The notes: generated from the sequence alone by a model not told the origin. A stretch of DNA of 22,446 nt from an uncultured bacterium (GCA_949284575.1 CASDWO010000074.1:1-22446), one strand, 5' to 3'; counted from the first letter of the stretch, positions 2,790-22,446 are shown. Numbers and translations: made by a program.

Positions 2790-4571
2790 ATGGTTAGTAA
2801 AATTAATAATTTAGTTAAAGATAAGAAAAAAGTAATTATTGCTTTTGTTATCTTAATTATTTTGATAGCAGCTCTTTATTTTTCATATGCTTGGTTAAGA
2901 ACTGTGTTATATGGAGAAAAAGATGTACAATTAATTGTAGGAGATATCGATTTAGTTTTAGATGAATCTAATACTGAAGGAATTCAACTTGTTAATGTTA
3001 TTCCTACTTATGATGAAGAAGGTAGAATGAATGAACCTTATAAATTTTCATTAGAAAATAAGAGTGATATTCCATTATATTTTACTTTATCTTTAGTTGA
3101 TGATGAGGAAGCTTTAGAATCTTGTCAAACTACAGATGGAGGAGCTTGTGAGTTATTAGATGGTAGGGATATTAGATATGATTTACAACTAGATGGAGAG
3201 ACATTTACAGGAACTTTATCAGATTCTTATATGGTAAGTTATGGAATTATTGATGCTCATGAAAAATTAGATGGAGAACTAAAGATATGGCTTAATATTA
3301 ATGCTACTAGCGAAGCGATGGGAAAAGTATTTTTAGGAAAATTAAAAGTATTTGCTTCTCAACAAGTAGATGAAGATTTTGTTCAAGGTAATGATGCTGC
3401 TAATCCTCCAGTAATGGATGATAATATGATTGCTATTAAACATGATGGGTATAACTGGGTTAAGACAGATATAGATAATGGTTGGTATAATTATGATATG
3501 CAAATATGGCCTAATGCTGTAACTGTTAAGAGTGATAAGTTAGCAGAATACCAAAGTGCAGGAGTAGGTACTGTAATAAATATGGATGATGTAGAAACTA
3601 TGTGGGTATGGATACCAAGATATAGTTATACAATAGCTAGTGAGAATGGAAGTACATATTATGGAAAAAAAGGGACTTATTTAACGACGACGCCAACAGC
3701 TGCTTTACCGGGAGAAATAGATGTTAAGTTTATTAAAACAACAGAAAAGGATGAAGGAACAGCAAGATATTTAGCTACAGAAGAGCCTAAAAATTACCGA
3801 ACACCTGATGCGTTTACATTTAATGGTGAAGAGTTAGATGGAATATGGGTAGGAAAATTTGAGACAAGTAGTAGTAATCCTGAATTAGTAAATGGAGGAG
3901 GAAATACTACAAGTTTAGATCCGATGATTAAGCCAAATGTAACAAGTTGGAGAAGTATAAATGTAAGCAATATATATAATGTGGGATTGAAGGTAAGTGC
4001 TGAAGGAAATAGATATGGCTTTAGTACAAATATGAATTCTCATGCTATGAAGAATACAGAATGGGCTGCAGTTGCCTATTTATCACAAAGTAAATATGGA
4101 AAATTAGGAAATCAAAACTTTAGTGGAGCAAATAAGGAAGTATATCAAAATAAAAGTGATTTATATATAACAGGATGTAGTTATGGAAGTCCAAGTAATT
4201 CTAATGAAGATTATGGATGTCAATATACATACGATAACAACGTAAGAGATGAGAATGGAATGATAGGAAGAGGAGTAGGAGCCTCAACGACTGGAACAAT
4301 CTATGGTATTTATGATATGAGTGGAGGAGCATGGGAATATGTCTTGGCCAACTATAATGATATTATAGCAAATAGTGGCTTTACTGAAATGCCTCCAGTA
4401 CAGTATTATGATAAATATACGACAGATAATATTTTAACAGCATGTAATGGAAATGAGTGTTTGGGTCATAATTTATCAGAAACACGAGGATGGTATAACG
4501 ATGCACAGACATTTGTCAACGCTGAATATCCATGGTTGGTGCGCGGCGGTGGCTGTCCATTGGTCGTGTGA
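2790..4571 (+). CDS. DGR target protein: N-terminal signal anchor, large extracytoplasmic region, C-terminal FGE-sulfatase/C-type-lectin-like domain. It appears truncated inside its VR.
   Basis: 593 aa. TM segment VIIAFVILIILIAALYF. C-terminal signatures typical of DGR CLec/FGE targets: NTEWAAVAYL, GIYDMSGGAWEYV, WLVRGG. The ORF stops at TGA-TAA (4569-4574) inside the VR, before the conserved SFRLV strand, which lies in another frame. Confidence 0.85.
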   Translation: MVSKINNLVKDKKKVIIAFVILIILIAALYFSYAWLRTVLYGEKDVQLIVGDIDLVLDESNTEGIQLVNVIPTYDEEGRMNEPYKFSLENKSDIPLYFTLSLVDDEEALESCQTTDGGACELLDGRDIRYDLQLDGETFTGTLSDSYMVSYGIIDAHEKLDGELKIWLNINATSEAMGKVFLGKLKVFASQQVDEDFVQGNDAANPPVMDDNMIAIKHDGYNWVKTDIDNGWYNYDMQIWPNAVTVKSDKLAEYQSAGVGTVINMDDVETMWVWIPRYSYTIASENGSTYYGKKGTYLTTTPTAALPGEIDVKFIKTTEKDEGTARYLATEEPKNYRTPDAFTFNGEELDGIWVGKFETSSSNPELVNGGGNTTSLDPMIKPNVTSWRSINVSNIYNVGLKVSAEGNRYGFSTNMNSHAMKNTEWAAVAYLSQSKYGKLGNQNFSGANKEVYQNKSDLYITGCSYGSPSNSNEDYGCQYTYDNNVRDENGMIGRGVGASTTGTIYGIYDMSGGAWEYVLANYNDIIANSGFTEMPPVQYYDKYTTDNILTACNGNECLGHNLSETRGWYNDAQTFVNAEYPWLVRGGGCPLVV

Positions 4572-4645
4572 TAATTTGATGTTTTTTTTTTACTCTATTT
4601 TTTGGGGTGGTGCTTGCTCGTTCCGCCTCGTGATGAGCGTGACTA
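4532..4645 (+). repeat. cassette C1: expressed-site variable region (VR) with 3' IMH-like GC block
   Basis: GCGCGGCGGT at 4541-4550, 68-nt core, CGTTCCGCCTCGTGAT at 4619-4634. The core has 0 Asn codons, is T-rich, and holds a T10 tract at 4582-4591. It is homologous to 11 downstream cassettes. Confidence 0.85.
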
Positions 4646-4658
4646 GCCCGTAGGGCTA
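4644..4658 (+). promoter_or_regulatory. GC-rich hairpin immediately 3' of the VR/IMH (candidate DGR target-recognition hairpin)
   Basis: TAGCCC (4644-4649), loop GTA, GGGCTA (4653-4658). It is present only after C1 and after none of the intergenic cassettes. Its position matches the hairpin/cruciform that follows the IMH in the Bordetella phage paradigm. Confidence 0.55.
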
Positions 4659-4732: not shown

Positions 4733-4772
4733 GCCTCGGCGCCCTCTTTTTTAGCGACGAGGCGTTTTTTTT
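4733..4772 (+). terminator. intrinsic terminator downstream of the target gene
   Basis: GCCTCG (4733-4738) pairs with CGAGGC (4758-4763), extended by CGC/GCG pairs, followed by T8 (4765-4772). Confidence 0.6.
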
Positions 4773-4783
4773 GAAACTAAAAT

Positions 4784-4815
4784 GATCAAGGTCCTGATTT
4801 TTCAGGGCCTTGATC
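4784..4815 (+). terminator. second strong stem-loop (terminator-like)
   Basis: GATCAAGGTCCTGA (4784-4797), loop TTTT, TCAGGGCCTTGATC (4802-4815): 14 bp with one G-T pair. It is followed by TAATTTTTAATTT, which is not a clean U-tract. Confidence 0.4.
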
Positions 4816-5183
4816 TAATTTTTAATTTATAATTTTCTTTTTGCTTGTTCCATATATTGGTGAGATTTTCTATAGTAAGGTAAATCTTTAAATTAAACTT
4901 TTTCTTTATATGGTTTTATTGTAATATTTGTATGTTCTTGGATTTTTATTTGATATATTTTTTTAAAACTCTTATTTAGAACTGTTTTGTTTCTAATATT
5001 TAATTTTTCTATACTTATTAATTATATTAGCTGATAGTAAAAAATGGAAAAAATTGTATTTGATTTTTATTGTTTAAATTTTATAAAATTTAATTGTCAT
5101 CTATATAGATGACAGGGATTAGGTCAAAATGCTTATGTATTTTCGTTGGATTAGTACTCTTTTTGTTAAGAGACTTTTCTTAT

Positions 5184-5296
5184 ATGGTTGGTGCGCGGCG
5201 GTGGCTGTCCATTGGTCGTGTGATAATTTGATGTTTTTTTTTACTCTATTTTTTGGGGTGGTACTTGCTCGTTCCGCCTCGTGATGAGCGTGACTA
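5184..5296 (+). repeat. cassette C2: near-identical intergenic twin of the expressed VR
   Basis: 113 nt against the 114 nt of C1. The only differences are T9 (5234-5242) against T10, and A5263 against G4612. In frame it reads RGGGCPLVV**FDVFFFYSIFWGGTCSFRLVMSVTMM*. An in-frame TAA lies 7 codons upstream. The 3' flank switches to the cassette-type spacer. Confidence 0.85.
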
Positions 5297-5514
5297 TGAT
5301 GTGATTATAGTTTAAGTTATTACTTATGTAATAAAAAATTTAATATCCTAGAGACTTAATTCCTACTTTTTTAAGTAAACTTATAATATGATGATGGGTA
5401 AGTAGTTAATTTGGGCGAAAATCAAAAATCATAGGGCAAGTACCTCTTGCCTTTTTTACTTTAGTGTTTTATTTTATATATGCGGGAGAAGTTTAATTTG
5501 TTTTTTTAGTTGTT

Positions 5515-5619
5515 GCGCGGCGGTGGTTATAATAATGACACTAATACCGGTGTTTTCTATTTCGATCATGCGGTTGAGTATGGTTCTACAGGTGTTAATG
5601 TGTCGTTCCGCCTCGTGAT
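5515..5619 (+). repeat. cassette C3 (26-codon core)
   Basis: Translates RGG-GYNNDTNTGVFYFDHAVEYGSTGVNV-SFRLVIGDY... with 4 Asn. TAG lies two codons upstream of the Arg codon. 3' class is ATAGGAGAC. Confidence 0.85.
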
Positions 5620-5836
5620 AGGAGACTACAATATAATTTTATTTAAGTTATTGCTATTTAGTAATAAAAAATATTTATTGTAGAACTTTTTCCTTTTTAC
5701 TTTAGTAAATAAAATAATGAAGTACTATTTTTCTAGGTAGTAAATACTGAACACTAGAAAAATATATTGTTGTTTGTAATACTTGTTTATGATAAATTTT
5801 ATGTAGGGAGAAGTTAATTTAGTTTTTCTAGTTGGT

Positions 5837-5941
5837 GCGCGGCGGTAGCTATAACGATAATACTGGTGCAGGTATGTTCAACTTTAATCGTACTAATACT
5901 TTAGGAGTTGGTAGTAATAATCATTCGTTCCGCCTCGTGAT
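5837..5941 (+). repeat. cassette C4 (26-codon core)
   Basis: RGG-SYNDNTGAGMFNFNRTNTLGVGSNNH-SFRLVI* with 7 Asn. TAG lies two codons upstream. 3' class is ATTTGAGAC. Confidence 0.85.
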
Positions 5942-6160
5942 TTGAGACTACAATATAGTTTTATTTAAGTTATTGCTATTTAGTAATAAAAAATATTTAT
6001 TGTAGAACTTTTTCCTTTTTACTTTGGTAAATAAATTAAAGAAGTATTATTTTTCTAGTTAGTAAATAGTGAACTCTAGAAAAATATATTGTTGTTGATA
6101 ATATTTGTTTATGATAAATTTGATGTAGGGGAGAAGTTTAATTTGTGTTTTTTAGTTGTT

Positions 6161-6265
6161 GCGCGGCGGTGGTTATAACAATGCTACTAATGCAGGTATG
6201 TTTTATTTCAATAACAGTAATATTACTGGTGGAGCTAATATCGATAGATCGTTCCGCCTCGTGAT
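6161..6265 (+). repeat. cassette C5 (26-codon core)
   Basis: RGG-GYNNATNAGMFYFNNSNITGGANIDR-SFRLVIGDY... with 7 Asn. TAG lies two codons upstream. Confidence 0.85.
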
Positions 6266-6481
6266 AGGAGACTACAATATAGTTTTATTTAAGTTATTAC
6301 TTATGTAATAAAAAATATTTATTGTAGAAACTTTTTCCTTTTTACTTTGGTAAATAAAATAATGAAGTACTATTTTTCTAGTTAGTAAATAATGAACACT
6401 GGAAAAATATATTGTTGTTTGTAATGTTTGTTTATGATAAATTTGATGTAGGGAGAAGTTAATTTTGTTTTTCTAGTTGGG

Positions 6482-6589
6482 GCGCGGCGGTAACTATAAT
6501 TCTGGTGGTGCCATTGCAGGTGTGTTTTATTTCAATAATAGTAATATTACTGGTGAAGCTAATATCAATAGATCGTTCCGCCTCGTGAT
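6482..6589 (+). repeat. cassette C6 (27-codon core)
   Basis: RGG-NYNSGGAIAGVFYFNNSNITGEANINR-SFRLVI* with 7 Asn. TAG lies two codons upstream. The 3' half is nearly identical to C5. Confidence 0.85.
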
Positions 6590-6814
6590 TTGAGACTACG
6601 ATATAAGATTATTTAAGTTATTACTTGTGTAATAAAAAATATTTATCATAGAAACTTTTTCCTTTTTACGAGTAGTATTAGTAAATAAAATAATGAAGTA
6701 CTATTTTTCTAGTTAGTAAATACTGAATACTAGAAAAATAAAATATTGTTAATAGATTTTCTTTATGATAAATTTTATGTAGGGGAGAAGTTAATTTTGT
6801 TTTTTTAGGTTGTT

Positions 6815-6913
6815 GCGCGGCGGTAGTTATATTAATTCTAATGCAGGTATGTTTTATTTCAATATTAACGTAGCTGGCAATGCAAATAGTAATGGCTCGT
6901 TCCGCCTCGTGAT
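6815..6913 (+). repeat. cassette C7 (24-codon core)
   Basis: RGG-SYINSNAGMFYFNINVAGNANSNG-SFRLVIGDY... with 7 Asn. An in-frame TAA lies 8 codons upstream. Confidence 0.85.
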
Positions 6914-7133
6914 AGGAGACTACAATATAGTTTTATTTAAGTTATTACTATATTGGTAATAAAAAATATTTATTGTAGAGACTTTTTCCTTTTTACTTTG
7001 GTAAATAAAATAATGAAGTATTATTTTTCTGGTTAGTAATTAGTGAACACTAGAAAAATATGATGTTGTTAATATTAATTATTTATGATAATTTTAATAT
7101 TGGGAAAAACTTTAAATTATTTTTTGCGTTATT

Positions 7134-7232
7134 ACGCGGCGGTAACTATAACAATAATACTAATGCAGGTGTGTTTAACTTTAATCATGTTGATGGTAAT
7201 ACTAATATTAATTGGTCGTTCCGCCTCGTGAT
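7134..7232 (+). repeat. cassette C8 (24-codon core, most Asn-rich)
   Basis: RGG-NYNNNTNAGVFNFNHVDGNTNINW-SFRLVI* with 10 Asn. The 5' block is ACGCGGCGGT. The leader variant is GGGAAAAACTT. An in-frame ATG at 7060 gives at most a 58-aa ORF (7060-7236). Confidence 0.85.
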
Positions 7233-7450
7233 TTGAGACTATGATATGAGATTGTTTAAGTTATTACTATATTAGTAATAAAAAATATTTATCATAGAAG
7301 TTTTTTCCTTTTTACTTTGGTAAATAAAATAATGAAGTACTATTTTTCTAGTCAGTAATTAGTGAACACTAGAAAAATATAGTGTTGTTAATAGTATCTA
7401 TTTATGATAATTTTAATATAGGGAGAAGTTATATTTATTATTTTGTTATT

Positions 7451-7549
7451 GCGCGGCGGTGGTTTTAATAATACGACTAATGCAGGTGTTTTCAACTTTG
7501 GTAACACTCTTGGTAATGGTGACAGCAATAATTCGTTCCGCCTCGTGAT
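7451..7549 (+). repeat. cassette C9 (24-codon core), unit with truncated spacer
   Basis: RGG-GFNNTTNAGVFNFGNTLGNGDSNN-SFRLVI* with 8 Asn. The next cassette follows after only 219 bp. The spacer lacks the CTTTTTCC segment and the TTTTTCTAG/CTAGAAAAA hairpin. Confidence 0.85.
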
Positions 7550-7669
7550 TTGAGACTATGATATAAGATTGTTTAAGAAGTTATTACCTATGTAAAAAAT
7601 TTATTGTTAATAATACCTATTTATGTTAATTTTTATATAGGGGAAAGTTAATTTTGTTTTTTAGTTGTT

Positions 7670-7768
7670 GCGCGGCGGTAACTATAATAATTCTAATGCA
7701 GGTATGTTTTATTTCAATACCTGGAATATTGGTAATACTAGTATTAATGGCTCGTTCCGCCTCGTGAT
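7670..7768 (+). repeat. cassette C10 (24-codon core)
   Basis: RGG-NYNNSNAGMFYFNTWNIGNTSING-SFRLVI* with 8 Asn. TAG lies two codons upstream. The 5' half is nearly identical to C7. Confidence 0.85.
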
Positions 7769-7992
7769 TTGAGACTACGATATAGTTTTATTTAAATTAT
7801 TACTTATGTAATAAAAAATATTTATCATAGAAACTTTTTCCTTTTTACGAGCAGTATTAGTGAATAAAATAATGAAGTACTATTTTTCTAGTTAGTAATT
7901 AGTGAACACTAGAAAAATATAGTGTTGTTAATAGTATCTATTTATGATAATTTTAATATAGGGAAAAGGTAAATGTATTTTAGTTGGTTGGT

Positions 7993-8091
7993 GCGCGGCG
8001 GTGTATTTAGTAATAATACTGATGTTGGTATTTTCTACTTTAGTTATACTATTGGTGGTGGTAGCATCTTTAGTTCGTTCCGCCTCATGAT
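7993..8091 (+). repeat. cassette C11 (24-codon core, adenine/Asn-poor, VR-like flanks)
   Basis: RGG-VFSNNTDVGIFYFSYTIGGGSIFS-SFRLMMKDY... with only 2 Asn. The 5' flank GGTTGGTGCGCGG matches the VR. The 3' block is the variant CGTTCCGCCTCATGATGAAAGAC, where the VR has ...GTGATGAGCGTGAC. An in-frame ATG at 7973 gives at most a 53-aa ORF. Confidence 0.85.
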
Positions 8092-8282
8092 GAAAGACTA
8101 CGATATAGTTTTATTTAAGTTATTACTTATGTAATAAAAAATATTTATCATAGAAACTTTTTCCATTTTACGAACGGTATTAGTAAATAAATTAAAGAAG
8201 TATTATTTTTCTAGTTAGTAGATAGTGAATACTAGAAAAATAAAATATTGTTAATAATATCTATTTATGATAATTTTGATAT

Positions 8283-8566
8283 AGGGAGAAGTTATATTTA
8301 TTATTTTGTTTTGCGCGGCGGTAGCTATAATGCGACTTCTAATGCAGGTGTGTTTAATTTCAATACTTGGAACAATGGTAATGCTAATTCTAATGGATCG
8401 TTCCGCCTCGTGATTTGAGACTACAATATAGTTTTATTTAAGTTATTGCTATTTAGTAATAAAAAATATTTATTGTAGAGACTTTTTCCTTTTTACGAGC
8501 AGTATTAGTAAATAAAATAAAGAAGTACTATTTTTCTAGTTAGTAAATAGTGAATACTAGAAAAAT
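8283..8566 (+). ncRNA. candidate DGR template RNA unit (leader, TR-like core, structured spacer) adjacent to avd
   Basis: Leader AGGGAGAAGTT (8283-8293) can pair with GACTTTTTCCT (8480-8490) and so enclose the core. The nested CTACAATA/TATTGTAG and TTATTGCTA/TAGTAATAA hairpins are present, as is the terminal hairpin ATTTTTCTAG (8530-8539) / CTAGAAAAAT (8557-8566). The same architecture repeats in most units. Transcription is not demonstrated. Confidence 0.45.
8313..8414 (+). repeat. cassette C12 (25-codon core), positional candidate for a canonical TR next to avd
   Basis: RGG-SYNATSNAGVFNFNTWNNGNANSNG-SFRLVI* with 9 Asn. It is the last unit, and its spacer runs directly into the avd RBS. Confidence 0.85.
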
Positions 8567-8587
8567 AGTGGATGAGGAGTGATAACT

Positions 8588-8944
8588 ATGGATGATTTAG
8601 AAGGATTAGTTATTTATAAACAATATGTTGAACTTATTTATTATACTCTTTCTATTTTACTTAAATATCCTAAATCTGAAAGATTTTCTTTAGCTCAAGA
8701 TATTAAAAATACTACTTATGCAGGACTTAAAGATATTATTTATGCTCAAAAAGAATATGATAAGAAAAAGAGACTTTCTTATTTAAATGAACTTGATGCT
8801 AATTTAAAAATAGTTAAAGTTTTGATTAGAGTTTCTCATAAGAAAAAATATATTACTTCAAAAAATTATACAGCTTGGAGTAAGAAAATTGCTAATATTT
8901 CTAATCTTAATGGAGGTTGGATTAAATCATGCCTCATACGATAA
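8588..8944 (+). CDS. avd: DGR accessory variability determinant (Avd, four-helix-bundle family)
   Basis: About 118 aa, basic and helical, with the pattern typical of Avd / 23S-rRNA-IVS-like proteins (YKQYVELIYYT...KYPKSERFSLAQDI...LDANLKIVKVLIRVSHKKKYI). GAGGAG at 8574-8579 precedes ATG 8588; the ORF track starts at GTG 8579. It overlaps the RT start by 16 nt. Confidence 0.85.
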   Translation: MDDLEGLVIYKQYVELIYYTLSILLKYPKSERFSLAQDIKNTTYAGLKDIIYAQKEYDKKKRLSYLNELDANLKIVKVLIRVSHKKKYITSKNYTAWSKKIANISNLNGGWIKSCLIR

Positions 8945-9993
8945 GAAATGCTTATTTGAAACATTTAACTATAGAGTCATTAATTGAAGCTCATGAGAGG
9001 GCTAGTAAGACAAAGAGATATTCCAAAGAAGTATTAAAATTTGAAATTGATCTTGAGAGTAATATAGTTAATTTATATAAGAAATTAAAAAATGGGACAT
9101 ATAAAATGGGAAAATATCGAGAATTTAAGATATTTGAGCCTAAAGAGAGGATAATTAGATCTTTACCTTATGTTGATAGAATTGTTCATCAGTGGTATGT
9201 TCATGAGTTTATAAAACCTTATGTTATACCTAGGTTTATTGTTGATTCTTATGCTTGTATAGACGGAAGAGGAACTCATAAAGCGGTTGATAGGATTCAA
9301 GCTTATATGCAAAATATGAAAAATAAATATGGTACTTACTATATAGTAAAATGTGATATTAAGGGATTCTTTTATAATATAGATAAAGATGTATTATTAA
9401 ATATTATGTTAAAATTTATTAAAGATGAGAAATTAATTTGGCTTACTAAAGAGTTTATTTATGGAGATGAAGATGAGATTGGATTGCCAATTGGTAATTA
9501 TACTTCACAATTTTTTGCTAATATTTATATGAACGAGCTTGATCATTATGCTAAAGAAGAATTGAAACTTAAGTATTATGTTAGATATATGGATGATTTT
9601 GTGTTTTTGGTTAAAACAAAAGAAGATGCTAGGAAATATATGGAACTTATTGCAGTTTTTCTAAAAGAAAAGTTACATATTCAATTGAATCATAAGAGTG
9701 GATATTATCCTAATAAAATGGGCCTTGATTTTTGTGGATTTCGTATTTATGAGAGTTATCGGTTACTTAGAAAGAGAAGTATTAAGAAAATAAAAAGAAA
9801 GATTAGAAAGTGGAATGAATTGTATTCTCATAATTTGTTAGATTTAGAGAAAACAATTTTAGAATGGAATTCTTGGCTTGGACATAGTTCTCATGCTAAG
9901 TGTTATAAATTGCAATGGGATATGTATAATAGGATTCTTTTTAAAGAGCATTTGAAGAAACCTTATGTGGAGACTTATGGACGAATATTATAG
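8929..9993 (+). CDS. DGR reverse transcriptase
   Basis: 354 aa. RT motifs include IVKCDIKGFFYNID, the DGR-typical LPIGNYTSQFFANIYMNELD (the SQ motif) and YVRYMDDFVF (YMDD). The size is compact with no maturase or endonuclease domains, and it is translationally coupled to avd. Confidence 0.93.
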   Translation: MPHTIRNAYLKHLTIESLIEAHERASKTKRYSKEVLKFEIDLESNIVNLYKKLKNGTYKMGKYREFKIFEPKERIIRSLPYVDRIVHQWYVHEFIKPYVIPRFIVDSYACIDGRGTHKAVDRIQAYMQNMKNKYGTYYIVKCDIKGFFYNIDKDVLLNIMLKFIKDEKLIWLTKEFIYGDEDEIGLPIGNYTSQFFANIYMNELDHYAKEELKLKYYVRYMDDFVFLVKTKEDARKYMELIAVFLKEKLHIQLNHKSGYYPNKMGLDFCGFRIYESYRLLRKRSIKKIKRKIRKWNELYSHNLLDLEKTILEWNSWLGHSSHAKCYKLQWDMYNRILFKEHLKKPYVETYGRIL

Positions 9994-10035: not shown

Positions 10036-10326
10036 ATGGATATATATAAAAAGAGTAGGGGTATTTTTATTGTAAATATAGCAATTATATTATTTGTATT
10101 ATTGGTTTTAAGTCCTAATCTTCTGTTTGTTTTTGAGTTTATTATTGATATATTTGTATTATTTCTAACTTTACGTCTTATAAATGATAATATTTTTGTA
10201 TATAATGAGAAATTAAAAAAAGTAACAGTAATTTTTACAATATTTATTATAGGCTATTGTTTGTTATTGTACTTTAAAAATTTTCATCCTTTCTTTTTGG
10301 TGATTACTTTTCTTAGATATATGTAA
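10036..10326 (+). CDS. small hydrophobic membrane protein, unknown function
   Basis: 96 aa with about three predicted TM stretches (IFIVNIAIILFVLLVL, FIIDIFVLFLTL, IFTIFIIGYCLLLYF). No recognisable family. It could be a spurious AT-rich ORF. Confidence 0.35.
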   Translation: MDIYKKSRGIFIVNIAIILFVLLVLSPNLLFVFEFIIDIFVLFLTLRLINDNIFVYNEKLKKVTVIFTIFIIGYCLLLYFKNFHPFFLVITFLRYM

Positions 10327-14897: not shown

Positions 14898-15533
14898 ATG
14901 GTGTTACTTATGAAAATAAAAAATATAGTTTTGGGAATAATTGGTATTATTTTGATTGTTATGTTATCTTTCCTTTTAGCAAACTTAATTCATAGTAGTA
15001 ATAATAAAGAGCAAGCAAAGGATGAACAAGAAGAACCAAAATTCTTAATTAATGGTGAAAAAGTTAATTTTGAGACATATAGAGTTGATGGGAAATTCTT
15101 TATAAATGTACCTGATATTTTAACTTCGTTAGATGAAGCTACATTAAAAAATGAGTATAATTATAATAATCGTCCTGAACTTGTTTTTAGAAGTAGTGAT
15201 CTTAAAGAACAGATCTTTATTAATACTACAAATCAAGATATGTTAGATGAAGGATTAGAAGAATATTTAAATAATCTTATAGCTAATCTTACTAATATGG
15301 AAGTGATTGATAGTGGGGTATATCAAAAATATGATAAAACTTTTGCTAAATTAATATCTAAAAATGCTAGTACATATTATAGCTTTAGATATTTTACCAT
15401 TGATAATAAACTAGTAACAATTGAATTTAATGTACCAGTTGATATTTCTTTAGAATGGGAAGAAGTTATTGAAGAAGTAATGGATAGTATTTGTTTTAGT
15501 GAAGATGATATAAAAAAATATTCTAGCGATTAG
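14898..15533 (+). CDS. membrane-anchored hypothetical protein
   Basis: 211 aa with one N-terminal TM helix (IVLGIIGIILIVMLSFLLANLI), then an acidic soluble domain. No recognised family. An alternative start is ATG 14910. Confidence 0.5.
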   Translation: MVLLMKIKNIVLGIIGIILIVMLSFLLANLIHSSNNKEQAKDEQEEPKFLINGEKVNFETYRVDGKFFINVPDILTSLDEATLKNEYNYNNRPELVFRSSDLKEQIFINTTNQDMLDEGLEEYLNNLIANLTNMEVIDSGVYQKYDKTFAKLISKNASTYYSFRYFTIDNKLVTIEFNVPVDISLEWEEVIEEVMDSICFSEDDIKKYSSD

Positions 15534-15540
15534 AATATTT

Positions 15541-16782
15541 TTATTTTTTATCTTTATTTAAGTTCTTATATAAATTATATGGTAATGGACTAATGATAAA
15601 TTCAAATTCTCCTATATATTCGGTAATTAAAGCATTAAAGCCTAATTTCATTTCATTAAGACCACTATATTTGGTTATCTTTGTAAATTCACCACTTACG
15701 GCATTAAGATTTATATATTTAAAATTCTTATTTTTGTAGTCATTTATCATTTTCCATTTGATAAGATAGTTTGAGTTGAGAGTTTTGAAATTTTGATCAA
15801 ATCCCTCTATTATTAGATAACAAACATTATCATAGCAAAGATTTAGAGAAGTTCCAACAATTAGTCCTTCAGGATTTTCTTTTAATAGATTAGTGGCCCA
15901 AACAAGATTTTTTTTATAAATATTTACTAATTTGTCGGATTCCATTTTTTCATTAATTAGTCTTTTTTTCATATTAATATTAGTAGTACTTTGTATTTTA
16001 TTAGCTAGATCATTGTTGATTTCTAATTCTTTTTCATATTGTAATCTACTAGTAATAACAAAAGTTTCGGTATTTAGTTTAGCAAAGTATAGATCTATAT
16101 TATTTTCAAAGTTATTATAAAACTCTATATAATAATTTAAAGGTTTATCATACTTCTTTTTAATTAGTTCATAAAATATTTTTAAATCTTCTTTATTGCC
16201 TTTATATATTTCTATACCACTTCTAATAGCTTTTTTAATTTTATGTCTTACTCTTTTTTCAAAACTTTGATATATATCTTTAATATCATCGTTTAAAGTA
16301 ATAAGTGCTTCGAATCTTGGCTTTTTACTTTCAAAGAAAAGATTTGGTCCTAAATAATTATAACCTGTAGCTTTTAAATTTTCTAATGATATATTCGCTT
16401 CATTGTTAATATTTATTATTTTGCCATCTTTATTTCTAATATTAACTGGAAGATATGGATCAATAGTAATAGAGATAAAACCTTGTTTACCTAAGAGTTT
16501 TTTTAGTCTTGTAGTAAATTCTTTTAAATTATTAATATTGGTATAGTCGAAAAGAAAGCCTCTTGGGGCATAGGCAATTTTATAATTCATGAATACTTCT
16601 TTATATAAAAGTAGGGAAGCTCCTAATAATTTTTCATTATCATCTATTATACCGATATAATGAATATCATAACCGTAATTTTTTATAATATTACCATAAG
16701 CAGATGATTGATAATAATTACGGTATTTATGATTACTTGCAAATTTGTCAAAATCTAATTCATTTAAGGTTATTATCTTCAT
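15541..16782 (-). CDS. FemAB-family peptidoglycan interpeptide-bridge aminoacyltransferase
   Basis: 413 aa. The layout and motifs resemble FemX/FemA/MurM: N-terminal FxQSxxYG (YQSSAYGNI), YAPRGFL, a central coiled-coil insertion, and a C-terminal GxxxFKxGF-like MKLGFNA. Confidence 0.7.
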   Translation of the reverse strand: MKIITLNELDFDKFASNHKYRNYYQSSAYGNIIKNYGYDIHYIGIIDDNEKLLGASLLLYKEVFMNYKIAYAPRGFLFDYTNINNLKEFTTRLKKLLGKQGFISITIDPYLPVNIRNKDGKIININNEANISLENLKATGYNYLGPNLFFESKKPRFEALITLNDDIKDIYQSFEKRVRHKIKKAIRSGIEIYKGNKEDLKIFYELIKKKYDKPLNYYIEFYNNFENNIDLYFAKLNTETFVITSRLQYEKELEINNDLANKIQSTTNINMKKRLINEKMESDKLVNIYKKNLVWATNLLKENPEGLIVGTSLNLCYDNVCYLIIEGFDQNFKTLNSNYLIKWKMINDYKNKNFKYINLNAVSGEFTKITKYSGLNEMKLGFNALITEYIGEFEFIISPLPYNLYKNLNKDKK

Positions 16783-16889
16783 ATGACACCACTTTCTTTT
16801 ATTAAATTATATCAATATATTTAATAGTTTTCAATTAGAGGGTTTAAATATTTTTGTGATTTAGTATAATATTATTAAGGAAATGGGGA

Positions 16890-18251
16890 ATGGATATGTT
16901 TACTTTAAAAAAAATATTAATACTGGGAATGGCTCGTAGTGGATATGAAGTAGCGAAGTATTTAAGTAAATATAATAATACTATTATTTTAAATGATGGA
17001 GGAAGTCGTGATAGGCAAGATGAAAATAAAGTATTAGAGTTAGAAAAGCTTGGAGTTAGTTTAATTTTTGATAGTCATCCTGATGATTTGCTTGATGATA
17101 GTTTTGATTATATTATTAAAAATCCTGGGATTAGGAATGATCATAAGTATGTAGTTAAGGCAAAAGAATTAGGAATTCCTGTTATTAATGAAGCAGAGAT
17201 GGCTTATAGATTGTTACCAAATGATGTTACATTAATTGGTATTACTGGTACTAATGGGAAGACTACTACGACAACTCTTACTTATGAGATGATTAAAAAA
17301 AGTGGTAAAAGAGTTCATTTAGCGGGGAATATTGGTTATCCTTTATGTAGTTTTTTAGATAAACTAGAGAGTGGCGATATTATTGTGATGGAAGTATCTT
17401 GTCAACAGTTAGCTAATATGGATAAGTTTAATCCTCATATTGCCTTAATGACTAATTTATCAGAAGCTCATATAGATTTCTTTGGTAGTTATGATGAATA
17501 TAAAAAGGTTAAACTTAAACTTTTTGCAAATCAAACTGAGGATGATGTAGCGATATTAAATATAGAAAACGATGATGTTATGAAGGGAACTACTGATATT
17601 AAGAGCAATTCCAAGTACTTTTCTTCTAAGAGGGCGATAAATGGAGCATACTTTATTGATAATAAGCTTTATTACTATGATGAATTTATTATGAATCGTG
17701 ATGAATTCTTACTTAAAGGTAATCATAATGTTGAGAATGCTTTAGGAGCAATGATGATAGCGAAAGAAGTGGGAGTTGATAATGAGTCTATAGTTTCTGT
17801 TTTAAAGACTTTTACTGGGGTTAGACATAGATTAGAATTTATAGATAAAGTTAATGGTGTAGATTATTATAACGATACAGAAGCTACTAATACTAAGTGT
17901 ACTACTATTGCTTTATCATCATTTGATAAGAATGTTATTTTAATACTTGGAGGACTTGAACGGGGACAAGATTTTCATGATTTAGATAATTTTATTAGTC
18001 CAGTTAAAGAAATTGTTGGTATTGGAGAGTGCCGTGATAGAGTTAAAGAATATGGAGAGAGTGTTGGTATTAAGACTAAGACTTTTGAAAAATTAGTTGA
18101 TGCGATGAATTATATTAATAGTGTTGTAGATAGTGGAGATACAGTGTTACTTAGTCCTGCATCGGCATCATGGGATCAATATAAACAATGTGAGGATAGA
18201 GGGGATGAATTTAGAGATATAGTTAGGAGTTTTAAAGATAATGAAAAATAG
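16890..18251 (+). CDS. murD: UDP-N-acetylmuramoyl-L-alanine--D-glutamate ligase
   Basis: 453 aa: N-terminal Rossmann GMARSG, Mur ligase P-loop GITGTNGKTTTTTL, LKGNHNVENALGA, NDTEATN, SPASASWDQY. Confidence 0.92.
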   Translation: MDMFTLKKILILGMARSGYEVAKYLSKYNNTIILNDGGSRDRQDENKVLELEKLGVSLIFDSHPDDLLDDSFDYIIKNPGIRNDHKYVVKAKELGIPVINEAEMAYRLLPNDVTLIGITGTNGKTTTTTLTYEMIKKSGKRVHLAGNIGYPLCSFLDKLESGDIIVMEVSCQQLANMDKFNPHIALMTNLSEAHIDFFGSYDEYKKVKLKLFANQTEDDVAILNIENDDVMKGTTDIKSNSKYFSSKRAINGAYFIDNKLYYYDEFIMNRDEFLLKGNHNVENALGAMMIAKEVGVDNESIVSVLKTFTGVRHRLEFIDKVNGVDYYNDTEATNTKCTTIALSSFDKNVILILGGLERGQDFHDLDNFISPVKEIVGIGECRDRVKEYGESVGIKTKTFEKLVDAMNYINSVVDSGDTVLLSPASASWDQYKQCEDRGDEFRDIVRSFKDNEK

Positions 18252-18786
18252 TATAAATAGTGCAAAAATAGGAAATAAAGAGTTGATTAATTTAATTATT
18301 TATAGCTTAGATGAAAATAATGTAGATAAATTAGAGGATACTTTATCAATAATACATGATATTATTTTGGAATATAAGGTGTTATGTGAGCATTTAAGAA
18401 AAGATTATGTTGTAGGAGATTTAGATACATTTAAAATGGCATCTTGTATGTTGGTTGCTATTAATAGACATGGTTTTACTGAAGATAGTTTTGTTAATGC
18501 TTCTATAGCGGTAGATACAGCATATAAAATGTGTGAGAAACCTTGTAAAAATGTAAAGGATACTACAATTAAATTGGAAGAAGTTGATTTTAAAGAAGTA
18601 TTTAAAGATGATATGGAATTTTATCATAATACTAAAAATATGTTAATTAATTCTTTAATTAATGAGAAAGGTACTTCTTTGATTTACTTTTTAAATTTAG
18701 AACAATTTTATAATGTTGCTTTAGAAAGAAAATATCAATATATTAATACTTCTATTTGTAAAAAACATAGAAAAAGAAAACATTAA
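18241..18786 (+). CDS. hypothetical protein
   Basis: 181 aa. It overlaps the murD stop by 11 nt, and AGGAG at 18225-18229 precedes it. No recognisable domain. Confidence 0.45.
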   Translation: MKNSINSAKIGNKELINLIIYSLDENNVDKLEDTLSIIHDIILEYKVLCEHLRKDYVVGDLDTFKMASCMLVAINRHGFTEDSFVNASIAVDTAYKMCEKPCKNVKDTTIKLEEVDFKEVFKDDMEFYHNTKNMLINSLINEKGTSLIYFLNLEQFYNVALERKYQYINTSICKKHRKRKH

Positions 18787-18983
18787 TTGAAGTTTAGGAG
18801 ATTATTTTTATGAAGCTTATGTTGTTGTCGCAGATGAAGAAGACACAACTACTATTGTTTCTGTGAGAATGGTTTCTACTATATCAATGAGGGAGTTTAA
18901 AAATGTGAAGCAAAATGCAAAAAAATATTAAAAATGTTTCACATATTGTGATATTTGATATGTTTAAGAAAGGTGTGGTATTT

Positions 18984-19925
18984 ATGAATGACAATGTCGA
19001 GATAATGAATACTTTACATTATAAGCATAATTTAGAGGAACATCTTAATAATATGATTTGTGGTTCTGTTGAAGTTAGAGAAAAAGATGCAAAGAAATAT
19101 ATTTATGTACACTATAGAGAGCTTGGTAGAAATGTATCTAAGTATGTAGGGGAATATAGTGATGATCTTTATAATTTGATTTTAAATAATAATCTAAAGT
19201 CTAAAGAGTTAAAGAAAGAAATAAAGACTTTAGAGAAAAAGTTAAAGGAGTTAAATTATCAAGAGAGTGAACTTAGTGATGAAGTTAAACTTAATATAGA
19301 TTTTGCTAAAAGAAGTTTGGTAGATTCTATTTATAATCAAGCGATGTTAGAAGGCGTAGTTACTACTTATGAAAATGTAAATAATATTTTAAACAGCGGT
19401 CAAGTAAATGGAATGACTTCTACTGATATTATGAAAGTTGTTAATTTAAAACATGCTTGGGAGTTTGTTTTAGATGAAAATGTTATTATAGCAGAAGAGA
19501 GCTTTTCTTTCTTATCGCAAATTAACAAGTTGGTTCTTGAAGGCTTTTATTATAATGCAGGTAAAGTTAGAAGTAATACTGCTAAAATAGGTGGAACTAG
19601 TTGGATGCCTAGTATTCCTATAGAAAGTCAGGTAGTAGAGGAGCTTAATGACCTTTTAAAAAGTAAATTAGATGATATTAGTCTTGCTATAGAATTATTA
19701 TTATATGTTATGAAAAGACAGATATTTATTGATGGTAATAAGAGAACTGCTATTATTCTTGCTAATCATCATTTGGTATCAAGAGGATTAGGCATTATCT
19801 CTATTCCGAGTGATTCAGTCGAAGATTATAAGAAGATGTTAATTATGTATTATGAAGGAAAAGATACTGATAATATTAAGAAGTTTTTAAGAGATAAATG
19901 TTATATTAGTTTGAAAGGATGGTAA
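18984..19925 (+). CDS. Fic/Doc-family protein with a degenerate active-site motif
   Basis: Fic-like N-terminal region (SIYNQAMLEGVVTTYENV...NLKHAWEFV) and the motif QIFIDGNKRTAIILANHHL, i.e. a Doc-like xFxDGNKR in which Gln replaces the His. The ORF track starts at 18915. ATG 18984 follows AAAGGTG and is the likelier start. Confidence 0.55.
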   Translation: MNDNVEIMNTLHYKHNLEEHLNNMICGSVEVREKDAKKYIYVHYRELGRNVSKYVGEYSDDLYNLILNNNLKSKELKKEIKTLEKKLKELNYQESELSDEVKLNIDFAKRSLVDSIYNQAMLEGVVTTYENVNNILNSGQVNGMTSTDIMKVVNLKHAWEFVLDENVIIAEESFSFLSQINKLVLEGFYYNAGKVRSNTAKIGGTSWMPSIPIESQVVEELNDLLKSKLDDISLAIELLLYVMKRQIFIDGNKRTAIILANHHLVSRGLGIISIPSDSVEDYKKMLIMYYEGKDTDNIKKFLRDKCYISLKGW

Positions 19926-19927
19926 CA

Positions 19928-20365
19928 ATGAAGAAAAATATAGAGGTAGAAAAAAAGATGTGCTTGATATATCCATTTAATCCTAATACTACTGTAGTTG
20001 CTGACTGTCAAAGAGATTTGTATTTAGCATCATTATTAGGAGTAAAAAACGTAAAGTTTTATCCTATATATAGAGATATGAAAGATTCTACTATTAATAA
20101 AAGTTTTGATATAGTTGATAAATTAGTTAGCACTTCTTTTGAATTAGATTATGAAGAAGCATTACCACATGGTTTCTTTAAAGGATTAGAGGGATTTTCT
20201 CCTAAGATATTCTATTATAATGAAGAGAAAAGAATGTATGATGCTCAGATTAGTCTAGATGAGTATATTGCTAGTAATTCTAGTACTTTAGAAAATAGAG
20301 AAAATGTAGGAAAAAGATTAATTAAAAGAAAAAATAATACAGTAAATAGTGAAACAGTGATATAA
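19928..20365 (+). CDS. hypothetical protein, coupled to the Fic/Doc-like gene
   Basis: About 145 aa. Its start abuts or overlaps the upstream stop (ATGGTAACAATG). No recognisable domain. Confidence 0.4.
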   Translation: MKKNIEVEKKMCLIYPFNPNTTVVADCQRDLYLASLLGVKNVKFYPIYRDMKDSTINKSFDIVDKLVSTSFELDYEEALPHGFFKGLEGFSPKIFYYNEEKRMYDAQISLDEYIASNSSTLENRENVGKRLIKRKNNTVNSETVI

Positions 20366-20391
20366 TATAGTTGTTTGGAAAGGATGATTTT

Positions 20392-21621
20392 ATGAATATT
20401 AAAAATATTATAGGAAGAGAAATATTAGATTCAAGAGGTAACCCTACTGTTGAAGTAGATGTAATATTAGATAATGGTATTATGGGTAGGGCTTGTGTAC
20501 CTAGTGGAGCTTCTACAGGAGAGCGAGAAGCTTTAGAAATGAGAGATGGAGATAAGAGTAGATTTAATGGTAAGGGAGTATTAAATGCTGTTAATAATGT
20601 TAATACTATCTTACGTGATAATCTAATTGGAATGGATGTTACTAAACAAAAAGAGATAGATTATAAAATGCTAGAGTTAGATGGTACTAAAACTAAGAGT
20701 AAGTTAGGTGCTAATGCTATACTTGGTGTTTCTATGGCTTGTTTAAAGGCTGCTGCGAAAGCTAATGGTAAAGAGTTATATGAATATGTTGGAGATGGTA
20801 AGACTTTACCTGTTCCTATGATGAATATAATAAACGGAGGTGCTCATGCTGATAACTCATTAGATTTTCAAGAGTATATGATTATTCCTCAAAGAGATAC
20901 TATTCATGAGCGAGTTAGAGTAGGTGCTGAAGTGTTCCATAGTCTTAAAAATGTATTAAAAGAAAAGGGATATGCTACTAGTGTAGGAGATGAAGGTGGT
21001 TTTGCACCTAACTTAAAAACTAATAAAGAGGGATTTGAGTTAATTACTGAAGCGGTTAGACGTGCTGGATATGAGCCTGGAAAAGATGTTTGTTATGCAA
21101 TTGATGTTGCAGCAAGCGAGTTTTATAGTGATGGTAAATATAATCTTGTAGGAGAAGGTAAAGTACTTAGTACTGATGAGTTAATTAAATACTATGAAGA
21201 TTTAGTTAATACTTATCCAATAATTTCAATAGAAGATCCTGTTGATGAGAATGACTTTCAAGGATTTAGTAAAGTAACAGAGTTACTTGGAGATAGAATT
21301 CAACTTGTAGGTGATGATTTATTTGTTACTAATAAAGAATGCTTACAAAAAGGTATCGATAATAAAGCTGGTAATGCAATACTATTAAAAGTAAATCAAA
21401 TTGGTACTATTACTGAAACACTTGAAACTATTGAGCTTGCTAAAGCACATAATTATAAGACTATTATTTCTCATAGAAGTGGTGAGACTGAAGATACTAC
21501 TATAGCAGATCTTGCTGTTGGACTTGATTTAGGTCAAATTAAAACTGGTTCTATGTCTAGAACAGATAGAATATGTAAATATAATCAGTTAATGAGAATA
21601 GAAGAAGAGCTTAGTAAATAG
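20392..21621 (+). CDS. eno: enolase (phosphopyruvate hydratase)
   Basis: Starts [24 protein letters not shown]. Also contains [49 protein letters not shown] and [12 protein letters not shown] 20392 follows GGAAAGGA; the ORF-track TTG at 20371 is unlikely to be the start. Confidence 0.97.
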
Positions 21622-21637
21622 GCTCTTTTGCTTTTTT
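21605..21637 (+). terminator. weak intrinsic terminator after eno
   Basis: AAGAGC (21605-21610), 11-nt loop, GCTCTT (21622-21627), then TTGCTTTTTT. It overlaps the eno stop. Confidence 0.35.
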
Positions 21638-21681
21638 GACTAAGTTGTAGTATAATATAGCAAGTTTTAGTGGTGATAGTT

Positions 21682-22446
21682 ATGAAAAAGTATAATAATA
21701 TAAAAAAATCAGTTATTTTTAATAATGGGAATACTTGTATAGATAATATTTTTGAATTAGAAAAAGTTGGATCTGGTCATGATGGTATTGTTTTTAGATT
21801 TAATAATTTAGCTTTAAAACTTTTAAAATATGATATTACTTTGCGTAAAGATAAATCTTTAATGACTTATGATAAAGCGATTACTTTTATGAATAAATTA
21901 TATGTAAAAAGAACTGCTAAACCTTTAGAGTGTATGTTTGATGAAGATGGGGTATTTTGTGGGATTGTAATGGATTATATTTTTGATGTTACTAATAGTA
22001 AGAATTTATTTCTTAGAAAAGATAGTGGTGATTTTACTTGTAGTGAATTAATTGAATGTACATATGATTTATATGATGATTTTTCTAGTTTTACAGAAAA
22101 TAAAATATTAGTTAAAGACTTGAATAGAGGTAGTTATATTTATTCTTATGATTATGTTCATTTGTGTGATATGGATAAGTTTAAAATTTTAAATACATCT
22201 TGTTATAATATTTATGATAATAATATTAATAAATTTAATTTTTATATAGCAAAGTTGTTATATTTTGAAATGATTAAAGATAAGAGTTTAAATAAAGAGG
22301 ATTTAAGACAATTATCTAAATGGGTAAGACATGTATCTAATGGAAGAAACTTTATTCCAAACTTAGAAAAATTTATTGGAACTTCATATGATACTAAAAT
22401 AGGTGATTTTTCTAGATCTATGTGTAAAAGTATATTACATAAATAA
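21682..22446 (+). CDS. putative protein-kinase-like fold protein
   Basis: About 254 aa. It has a Gly-rich-loop-like VGSGHDGIVF, then ALKLLK (a VAIK-like Lys), VKDLNRGSYIY (a catalytic-loop-like D..N) and CDMDKF (DFG-like). The assignment comes from motif order only. The stop codon is the last triplet of the window. Confidence 0.4.
   Translation: MKKYNNIKKSVIFNNGNTCIDNIFELEKVGSGHDGIVFRFNNLALKLLKYDITLRKDKSLMTYDKAITFMNKLYVKRTAKPLECMFDEDGVFCGIVMDYIFDVTNSKNLFLRKDSGDFTCSELIECTYDLYDDFSSFTENKILVKDLNRGSYIYSYDYVHLCDMDKFKILNTSCYNIYDNNINKFNFYIAKLLYFEMIKDKSLNKEDLRQLSKWVRHVSNGRNFIPNLEKFIGTSYDTKIGDFSRSMCKSILHK

Follow-up and report, generated by a model that had tools for sequence, protein, structure and literature searches.

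Introduction

Diversity-generating retroelements (DGRs) are understood as systems with one invariant template, which diversify their target gene only at adenine-encoded positions and at a fixed length. The described systems closest to the locus reported here are the DGR of Bordetella phage BPP-1, with its template repeat (TR) and variable region (VR), and the pilE/pilS and vlsE/vls systems of Neisseria and Borrelia, with their silent donor cassettes. In this study we analyse a 22,446-nt stretch of DNA from an uncultured bacterium (GCA_949284575.1, CASDWO010000074.1:1-22446; hereafter the window), a piece of low-GC (25–35%) bacterial chromosome in which ten tandem cassettes are flanked by a surface-protein gene and by the genes for an accessory variability determinant (avd) and a reverse transcriptase (RT). 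We conclude that these cassettes, C3 to C12, are very probably a tandem array of alternative TRs of one DGR.

Surveys of DGRs tally additional TRs, assign them to VRs of their own, or drop such cases. RNA elements of DGRs have been described as well: RT-1 to RT-19 are motifs beside RT genes, one of which lies between TR and brt in phage BPP-1, and a role of these motifs in DGRs has been proposed (Weinberg et al. 2017, PMC5737381). For the Bordetella RT–Avd complex, correct and incorrect incorporation at adenines are roughly equal (~50%; PMC6182149). In the searchable full-text literature, outside which subscription journals lie, we found no description of tandem alternative templates for one VR, or of a null template.

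Template use in related genomes

Two anchor sequences, CGCGGCGGT and TCGTTCCGCCTC(G/A)TGAT, each occur 12 times in the window and on the plus strand only, against chance expectations of ~0.1 and 0, respectively, and they bound the cassettes C1–C12 of a first-pass annotation of this DNA. C1 is the VR at the 3′ end of the target open reading frame (ORF), C2 sits 652 nt 3′ of it, and C3–C12 (5516–8414) form ten tandem units with a period of ~323 bp, followed by avd and the RT gene (Table 1). The avd product matches Pfam bAvd (84 bits, 9.5e-24) and NCBIfam DivGenRetAVD (83.7 bits; cut-off 80), and the RT carries the DGR-type motifs LPIGNYTSQFF and YVRYMDDF and matches Pfam RVT_1 (1.7e-17). Taken together with the 3′-terminal VR, its flank resembling an initiation-of-mutagenic-homing (IMH) sequence, the adjoining hairpin, and the adenine-specific TR-to-VR transfer in orthologous loci, these features identify the locus as a DGR.

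Related loci were found via the RT, and are labelled L001 and so on; L057 is a metagenome contig. A metagenome scan with the pattern of the VR flanks returned 4 contigs only, though useful ones. The 15 close relatives (RT 78–85% identical) are uncultured gut Bacilli, four of them metagenome-assembled genomes (MAGs) of "Candidatus Onthousia" and the others labelled uncultured Bacilli or Tenericutes. All 15 have the array 5′ of avd-RT, with 2–25 units each, and in each related locus the orthologous gene carries one further copy at its 3′ end, with a GC-rich hairpin behind it.

We compared the gene-borne copy of each locus with every array unit present there. In ten loci the VR proved to be one particular array unit, changed at that unit's adenines: 133/264 adenines differed (50%) versus 4/448 other bases. 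The matching unit was unit 3 in L001 (16 adenines changed; 0/49 non-adenine mismatches), L006 (15; 0/44) and L007 (11; 0/50), unit 2 in L002 (13; 0/46) and L004 (17; 0/51), and the last unit in L019 (7; 1/60) and L057 (12; 0). Arrays are sometimes broken up, and in L009 the unit used is an orphan template (4080–4183) that lies 2 kb 5′ of the target gene (15; 0/53). In L005 and L012 the match between VR and array unit was near-perfect. The template in use varies between genomes, with no preferred position in the array. Because half of the template adenines are changed, as with the Bordetella RT–Avd complex, and because the mismatches fall at the adenines of the unit, the array units are the templates and the gene-borne copy is the product. 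Direction of transfer, adenine specificity and the use of multiple templates are direct observations in these relatives.

The VR of L012 (5555–5658) is informative in another respect. Compared with a single unit it shows two non-adenine mismatches and a 3-nt gap; if the AGVF block, which is conserved, is taken as a junction, the 5′ part corresponds to unit 8023 and the 3′ part to unit 7027, each with 0 non-adenine mismatches. The VR is therefore a chimera of two templates, which implies either that successive homing events each replaced part of it or that templates were switched. VR lengths in 112 expressed public homologues of the target (23–28 residues, with a peak at 26) mirror the length classes of the array units.

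The first-pass annotation had read the AAY-rich, frame-keeping cores that have no attached gene as either templates or silent cassettes, and the adenine-specific mismatches to one cassette in the relatives decide for templates. The alternative is that C3–C12 are silent donors for RT-independent gene conversion, of the pilS or vls type. An array of partial-gene cassettes beside one expressed gene, with cassettes that are mosaically related to one another, is what such a system would contain, and transfer of C2 into the VR is essentially faithful (2/59 adenines changed). Faithful conversion does not account for the ten loci that differ from their donor at ~50% of adenines and ~1% of other bases, which is the signature of DGR reverse transcription; furthermore, avd and RT are adjacent and intact, and the homology arms are only ~18 and ~20–28 nt. 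We regard silent donors as very unlikely for C3–C12.

Nor is the array likely to be an artefact of assembly, in which reads from a hypervariable VR are mis-assembled as tandem copies. Contigs do often break at the VR or at C2-type sequence (L058, L059). Nevertheless, the array is present in >15 independent assemblies, the flanks of the units differ by 8–15% plus indels, and C1 and C2 differ at two positions. One of the assemblies (L010) is a 1.5-Mb circular long-read chromosome that carries the array, which excludes a short-read artefact. The probability of this explanation is negligible.

More distant RT relatives (≤67% identity) have a single TR/VR pair, and the array is therefore a feature of this clade. 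Tandem repeats of 280–460 nt are found near still more distant DGR RTs (46–59% identity) in Clostridia/Bacilli MAGs (L035:2109–3316, L053:1076–1853, L023:9431–10618), and these may be independent multi-template arrays. Viral contigs scanned with the 3′ anchor gave isolated single matches only, and no arrays.

Several arrays of the clade have individual peculiarities. The largest (L003:475–9498) has 25 units in ~9 kb, several of them adenine-poor or with altered anchors (LGG, HGG, RGD; SFRLA). Insertions of ~1.7 kb split the arrays of L002 (1316–2952) and L009 (7427–9065). In L011 (1492–5444), 4 kb separate the array from its last unit, and two units are frameshifted (76 and 79 nt).

Proposed RNA architecture of the template units

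Each unit (~280 nt) is arranged in the order promoter-like motif, leader, 5′ anchor, core, 3′ anchor and structured 3′ element. The anchors are GC-rich (GCGCGGCGGT on the 5′ side and TCGTTCCGCCTCGTGAT on the 3′ side), the cores are rich in Asn codons (69–90 nt across loci, 72–81 nt in the window), and the 3′ element is ~150 nt. The ~245 nt between cores are better conserved than the cores themselves, with 8–15% change from the consensus versus 21–31%.

The consensus structure comes from an alignment of 81 distinct 3′ flanks, taken from the window and from 14 loci. The 3′ element has four helices, 97.9% paired, in which 13 of the 27 pairs show compensatory changes, versus 5–7 in slid controls; none of 500 shuffles reached that number. 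A further small hairpin was recognized by eye, with the variants CAT/ATG, CGT/ACG, CAC/GTG and GCA/TGC. The leaders of the 81 units have the form TTG, 17–19 nt, TATGnTAA(n)TT and GGGA(G/A)AA, with conservation of 0.9–1.0 at TTG and TATG.TAA, and these two elements precede nearly every template unit in all genomes examined. As a pattern of sequence, the leader motif looks like a −35 element and an extended −10 element with a transcript start behind them.

The leader also takes part in a long-range helix (P0), in that GGGA(A/G)AA(C/U)UU is complementary to (A/G)(A/G)UUUUUUCC, which follows the first two helices 3′ of the core; the template is consequently enclosed in the helix. At 10/11 positions P0 pairs in at least 41 of the 46 distinct combinations, and position 9 alternates between U-A (18) and C-G (16). 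In C12, the helix joins GGGAGAAGTT (8284–8293) to GACTTTTTCC (8480–8489), and the P4 hairpin is at 8528–8568. Sub-threshold matches to the Rfam motif RT-14 occur at four units, with 29–32.5 bits against a gathering score of 48.1 (E = 0.006, local search); the match at C12 covers 8469–8568.

Each unit thus appears to be a complete DGR RNA gene, with promoter, P0, leader, template, P1/P2, P0′, P3 and P4. We infer that the units are transcribed separately, and that the 3′ element has a role in RT–Avd binding or recruitment and in priming. It is the combination of VR matches, promoter-like motif and covarying RNA structure, the last being conserved in the alignment, that leads us to read the cassettes as alternative TRs.

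Coding potential and divergence of the cores

The first-pass annotation drew attention to the coding potential of the cores, and its description stands apart from small differences in counting. The cores of C3–C12 share one frame, RGG...SFRL(V/M), are joined to no gene, and contain no stop, whereas a mean of 21 stops is expected; 0/20,000 mononucleotide shuffles were stop-free in all ten cores. Other frames are nearly open too (+1 has 2 stops, and −0 has 1), and part of the absence of stops therefore comes from the 3-periodic NNT/AAY composition and not from the reading frame alone. The AAY counts agree exactly with those reported before (10 in C8, 9 in C12, 8 in C9 and C10, 7 in C4–C7, 4 in C3, 2 in C11 and 0 in C1 and C2). 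Equally, TAG is found two codons before the Arg codon in C3, C4, C5, C6 and C10, the maximal ORFs are 58 aa at C8 and 53 aa at C11, and C12 has no ATG (a TTG is present at 8248). In-frame stops precede C7 and C9, at distances of 7 and 10 codons where 8 and 11 had been given, a matter of counting convention.

Pairs of cassettes had also been described as mosaics. C7 and C10 are 83% identical in their 5′ parts and 64% in their 3′ parts. For C5 and C6 the pattern holds as well (93% identity in the 3′ parts and 46% in the 5′ parts), with three differences in place of the two that were noted.

It might be proposed that each cassette encodes a small Asn-rich peptide of 35–60 codons, starting at a TTG or GTG just before the Arg codon, and every unit does have an open frame with such a possible start. 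However, the sole Shine-Dalgarno-like run, GGGAGAAG, is ~21 nt before the start and has the downstream UUUUUCC as its pairing partner, the ORFs end differently from unit to unit, and the cores are templates of the gene's VR. A peptide function is hardly credible.

A further proposal was that the cores span a gradient from template-like to mutagenised-like. Adenines per core do vary, from 17 to 27, as a gradient would require; the differences among cores, on the other hand, are not adenine-specific, and the proposal is weak. Change from the consensus is 27% at A, 31% at C, 23% at G and 21% at T (flanks, 8–15%), so that the expected excess at adenines is absent, the divergence of the cores being ~2.5 times that of the flanks at A, C, G and T alike. 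Among 92 × 91 ordered cassette pairs there was no adenine-only derivative pair (defined by ≥5 A>N and ≤3 other changes), and recent mutagenesis of array members is thus not seen. C3 and C11, which had been taken as products of mutagenesis, have lost 50% and 46% of consensus adenines versus 12–29% elsewhere, and have equally many non-adenine differences; at most, mutagenesis has left an old trace in them. That the cores diverge faster at all bases is compatible either with diversifying selection on what the templates contain or with flanks that are being homogenised.

These data also bear on whether the cassettes could be fossil VRs, that is, decayed 3′ ends of duplicated target genes or decoy cDNA acceptors. 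Adenine depletion in C3 and C11 could be read in this way, as could an in-frame, VR-like core at position 1 of L005 and L006, which differs from the last template by 11 A-to-N and 7 other changes. Against this, most cores are rich in adenine and AAY where real VRs are adenine-poor, and derivation of one cassette from another by adenine changes alone is not seen. It is always the cassette that holds A where the gene holds N, every unit keeps its RNA structure with compensatory changes, and cassette types are orthologous across species. We consider fossil VRs most unlikely.

The null cassette and the truncated target gene

C2 had also been likened to the mutagenised products of the array, but neither C2 nor C1 is one: C2 represents a separate, conserved class, and C1 is the VR of the gene holding a near-exact copy of C2. 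Cassettes of this class are first in the array in 13/14 genomes with that position assembled, and their sequence is conserved across species. Their cores (62–69 nt) are T-rich, with 5–12 A, and are out of frame or contain stops. The 3′ flank of C2 (GATGAGCGTGACTA) is identical to the VR flank and is followed by a local hairpin. The unit has its own version of P0 (GGGAUUAAAUC with GAUUUAAUUCC; in the window, GGGATTAGGTC at 5115–5125 with GACTTAATTCC at 5353–5363) and its own variant of the 3′ element, and it ends in a rho-independent terminator (5433–5453).

In the window, C1 and C2 are identical but for one site, which is A in C2 and G in C1, and a T10/T9 run. The C2 copy puts TGA TAA in frame, and the target protein is consequently truncated within the VR; an in-frame version would end ...SFRLVMSVTSP* at 4653, and homologues end SFRLVMS.TSP. 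The VR is a null-cassette copy and the protein is truncated in L010, L013, L015, L054 and L059 as well, and 7 of the 120 best public target homologues are truncated likewise. Contigs L058–L060, searched for further null VR/position-1 pairs, end at the repeat or close to it; a partial pair came from L059 alone, with no difference in the ~60 nt of overlap that precede the contig end. Within one lineage, L013 and L054 have the null VR and L057 has one derived from a template, which indicates that the state of the VR switches.

How the null copy is made can be argued in two directions. Its tract boundaries are those of TR-to-VR transfer, with arms of only ~18 and ~20 nt in L010, and these boundaries together with the RNA-gene architecture of C2 argue for the DGR machinery; the retained adenines point the other way. 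One explanation is a faithful, RT-independent copy-choice or gene conversion. The other is mutagenic homing into an unselected allele, with the assemblies representing a population consensus in which A is the plurality base at each site. Both substitutions seen have A in the cassette and G in the gene, which fits the second explanation weakly and fits a G-to-A mutation in the cassette equally well. We give even chances to the idea that the C2 copy in the window marks an OFF or reset state, with any template able to restore the full-length gene.

The position-1 units with a VR-like core mentioned above (L005:8724–8824, L006:3362–3462) have null-type flanks and a terminator, and their cores hint that position 1 can serve as an acceptor too.

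Target protein and surroundings of the locus

The target protein carries a membrane or signal anchor at its N terminus and a putative FGE/C-type-lectin-like region at its C terminus, with a weak Pfam FGE-sulfatase match over the YDMSGGAWEYV region (21.3 bits; cut-off 23.3). A profile of the protein had no match among solved structures, and an AlphaFold2 model from a 26-sequence alignment was too poor for use (pLDDT 40.7). The VR is followed by the IMH-like flank and a GC-rich inverted repeat (4618–4658); this repeat is expected, from its sequence, to be the target-recognition hairpin. The arrangement is conserved in relatives, which hold TAGTCC-GTAA-GGACTA in place of the repeat. Two strong hairpin-plus-T-run terminators lie 3′ of the target gene (4735–4815). 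In several relatives (L059) a minus-strand flavin-reductase/rubredoxin gene is located between the VR and the array.

Downstream of the RT gene is a small hydrophobic ORF of 96 aa (10036–10326), and just 3′ of the region of interest are rpsL (10528), rpsG (11001), fusA (11481) and tuf (13617). The remainder of the window (14898–22446) contains several large ORFs with no family match, one of which has a faint hit to a type IV secretion pilin.

Table 1. Positions of the DGR components in the window (A, adenines in the core)
Feature	Position	Strand	Basis or remark
Target gene, 593-aa surface protein	2790–4571	+	ORF; homologues mostly 606–631 aa
Variable region C1	4542–4634	+	67-nt core, T-rich, in-frame TGA TAA
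IMH-like flank GAGCGTGACTA, then inverted repeat TAGCCC-GTA-GGGCTA	4635–4658	+	Sequence reading
Position-1 'null' cassette unit, C2	5115–5460	+	Core and anchors 5194–5285; 66-nt core
Template unit C3	5485–5762	+	Anchors 5516–5619; 78-nt core; 19 A
Template unit C4	5806–6084	+	Anchors 5838–5941; 78-nt core; 26 A
Template unit C5	6128–6407	+	Anchors 6162–6265; 78-nt core; 27 A
Template unit C6	6451–6738	+	Anchors 6483–6589; 81-nt core; 26 A
Template unit C7	6782–7058	+	Anchors 6816–6913; 72-nt core; 24 A
Template unit C8	7102–7377	+	Anchors 7135–7232; 72-nt core; 27 A
Template unit C9	7421–7600	+	Anchors 7452–7549; 72-nt core; 22 A; distal 3′ element deleted
Template unit C10	7640–7917	+	Anchors 7671–7768; 72-nt core; 25 A
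Template unit C11	7961–8240	+	Anchors 7994–8091; 72-nt core; 17 A; 3′-anchor G>A gives SFRLM
Promoter-like motif before C12, TTGTTA, 17 nt, TG-n-TAATTT	8248–8276	+	Leader alignment; putative function
Template unit C12	8284–8568	+	Anchors 8314–8414; 75-nt core; 24 A
avd, DGR accessory variability determinant	8589–8944	+	Pfam bAvd; NCBIfam DivGenRetAVD
DGR reverse transcriptase	8929–9993	+	Motifs IGNYTSQ, YMDD

Discussion

The mechanism that we envisage has an Avd–RT complex that would reverse-transcribe the RNA of whichever unit it engages, misincorporating at about half of the template adenines. The cDNA would then replace the single VR at the 3′ end of the surface-protein gene, by way of the two GC-rich anchors and the IMH-plus-hairpin; if the VR is replaced only in part, or templates are switched, at the conserved AGVF block, a chimeric VR could result. 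The units are unlike one another in length and at non-adenine positions, and the choice of template would therefore add a second, combinatorial layer of diversity over adenine mutagenesis.

Several observations weigh against the reading of C3–C12 as alternative templates. No cassette of the window pairs with its VR: C1 carries the C2 sequence and matches none of C3–C12, and a TR/VR pair differing only at adenines is thus not seen there, so that the activity of these units is inferred from the orthologous loci. A sigma-70 scan of the window gave matches no commoner than in shuffled sequence and no consistent promoter per unit, the reason being that TAATTT is a weak −10 hexamer if the extended TG is left out of account. 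In the window and five relatives, gathering score was not reached for any Rfam family. Individual units may also be impaired: a ~100-nt deletion before C10 (7550–7670) took from C9 the 3′ strands of P1 and P0 together with P3 and P4, and C9, lacking most of the 3′ element, is probably defective, while the adenine-depleted units C3 and C11 may serve poorly as templates. Finally, ordinary mutagenic retrohoming does not predict that only 2 of 59 adenines are changed in the null copies.

It is possible that the locus is a device of three layers: a choice among up to 25 structurally distinct templates, with chimeras through partial homing; adenine mutagenesis; and a conserved, adenine-poor null template at position 1 that turns the surface protein off reversibly, every other template being able to turn it on again. 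We offer this tentatively, and would put its chances slightly below even. If this is true, the DGR acts as a system of phase variation and cassette switching, and the near-faithful copying of the null cassette points to a non-mutagenic form of DGR homing or to a short-homology copy-choice mechanism. A DGR with a null template may park its gene in a recoverable OFF state. An array of alternative templates would mean that natural DGRs can also vary loop length and fixed scaffold residues and build chimeric VRs.

There are practical implications as well. Single genomes supply 3–25 natural variants of a complete DGR RNA, which is a rich comparative set for RT–Avd recognition, and for engineering the array is a natural blueprint for multiplexed templates on one target. 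For gut microbiology, the locus would represent a hypervariable, phase-variable surface protein in a widespread uncultured lineage of Bacilli.

With ten template-type units and one null unit, the locus departs from the canonical one-template DGR. It shares with the DGR of phage BPP-1 (mtd-avd-TR-brt) an Avd and an RT with the motif (I/L)GxxxSQ, unidirectional transfer from template to VR, misincorporation at ~50% of adenines, an AAY-rich template with a structured RNA 3′ of it, and a VR at the 3′ end of the target gene, with a GC-rich element as its boundary and an IMH-like flank and a hairpin after it. Unlike BPP-1, which has one template and one VR, it has 10 units of different lengths (2–25 in relatives) for one VR, every unit having a leader, a promoter-like motif and a 3′ RNA element to itself, and in addition a conserved, adenine-poor first cassette. 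In further contrast to the phage element, it is chromosomal in a gut bacterium, next to rpsL-rpsG-fusA-tuf, and has avd between the array and the RT gene. The 3′ element resembles Rfam RF02921 (RT-14; PMC5737381), with which it aligns over UAUU..AG.GA.UU.UUCCUU, the small hairpin, and a long hairpin with a UAGUA/GAAU internal loop; it differs in scoring 32 bits against a gathering score of 48 and in missing ~53 model positions.

The likeness to Neisseria pilE/pilS and Borrelia vlsE/vls lies in the single expression site with neighbouring, promoter-distal partial-gene cassettes in a conserved frame, in the chimeric expressed alleles, and in cassettes that are mosaics of one another. Unlike those systems, transfer here is adenine-specific, which is an RT signature, the cassettes are structured RNA genes, and the arms are ~20 nt. 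The locus is also comparable to the multi-copy architectures known from DGR surveys, in being built by duplicated DGR repeats; the multiplicity, however, is reversed, with many templates serving one acceptor.

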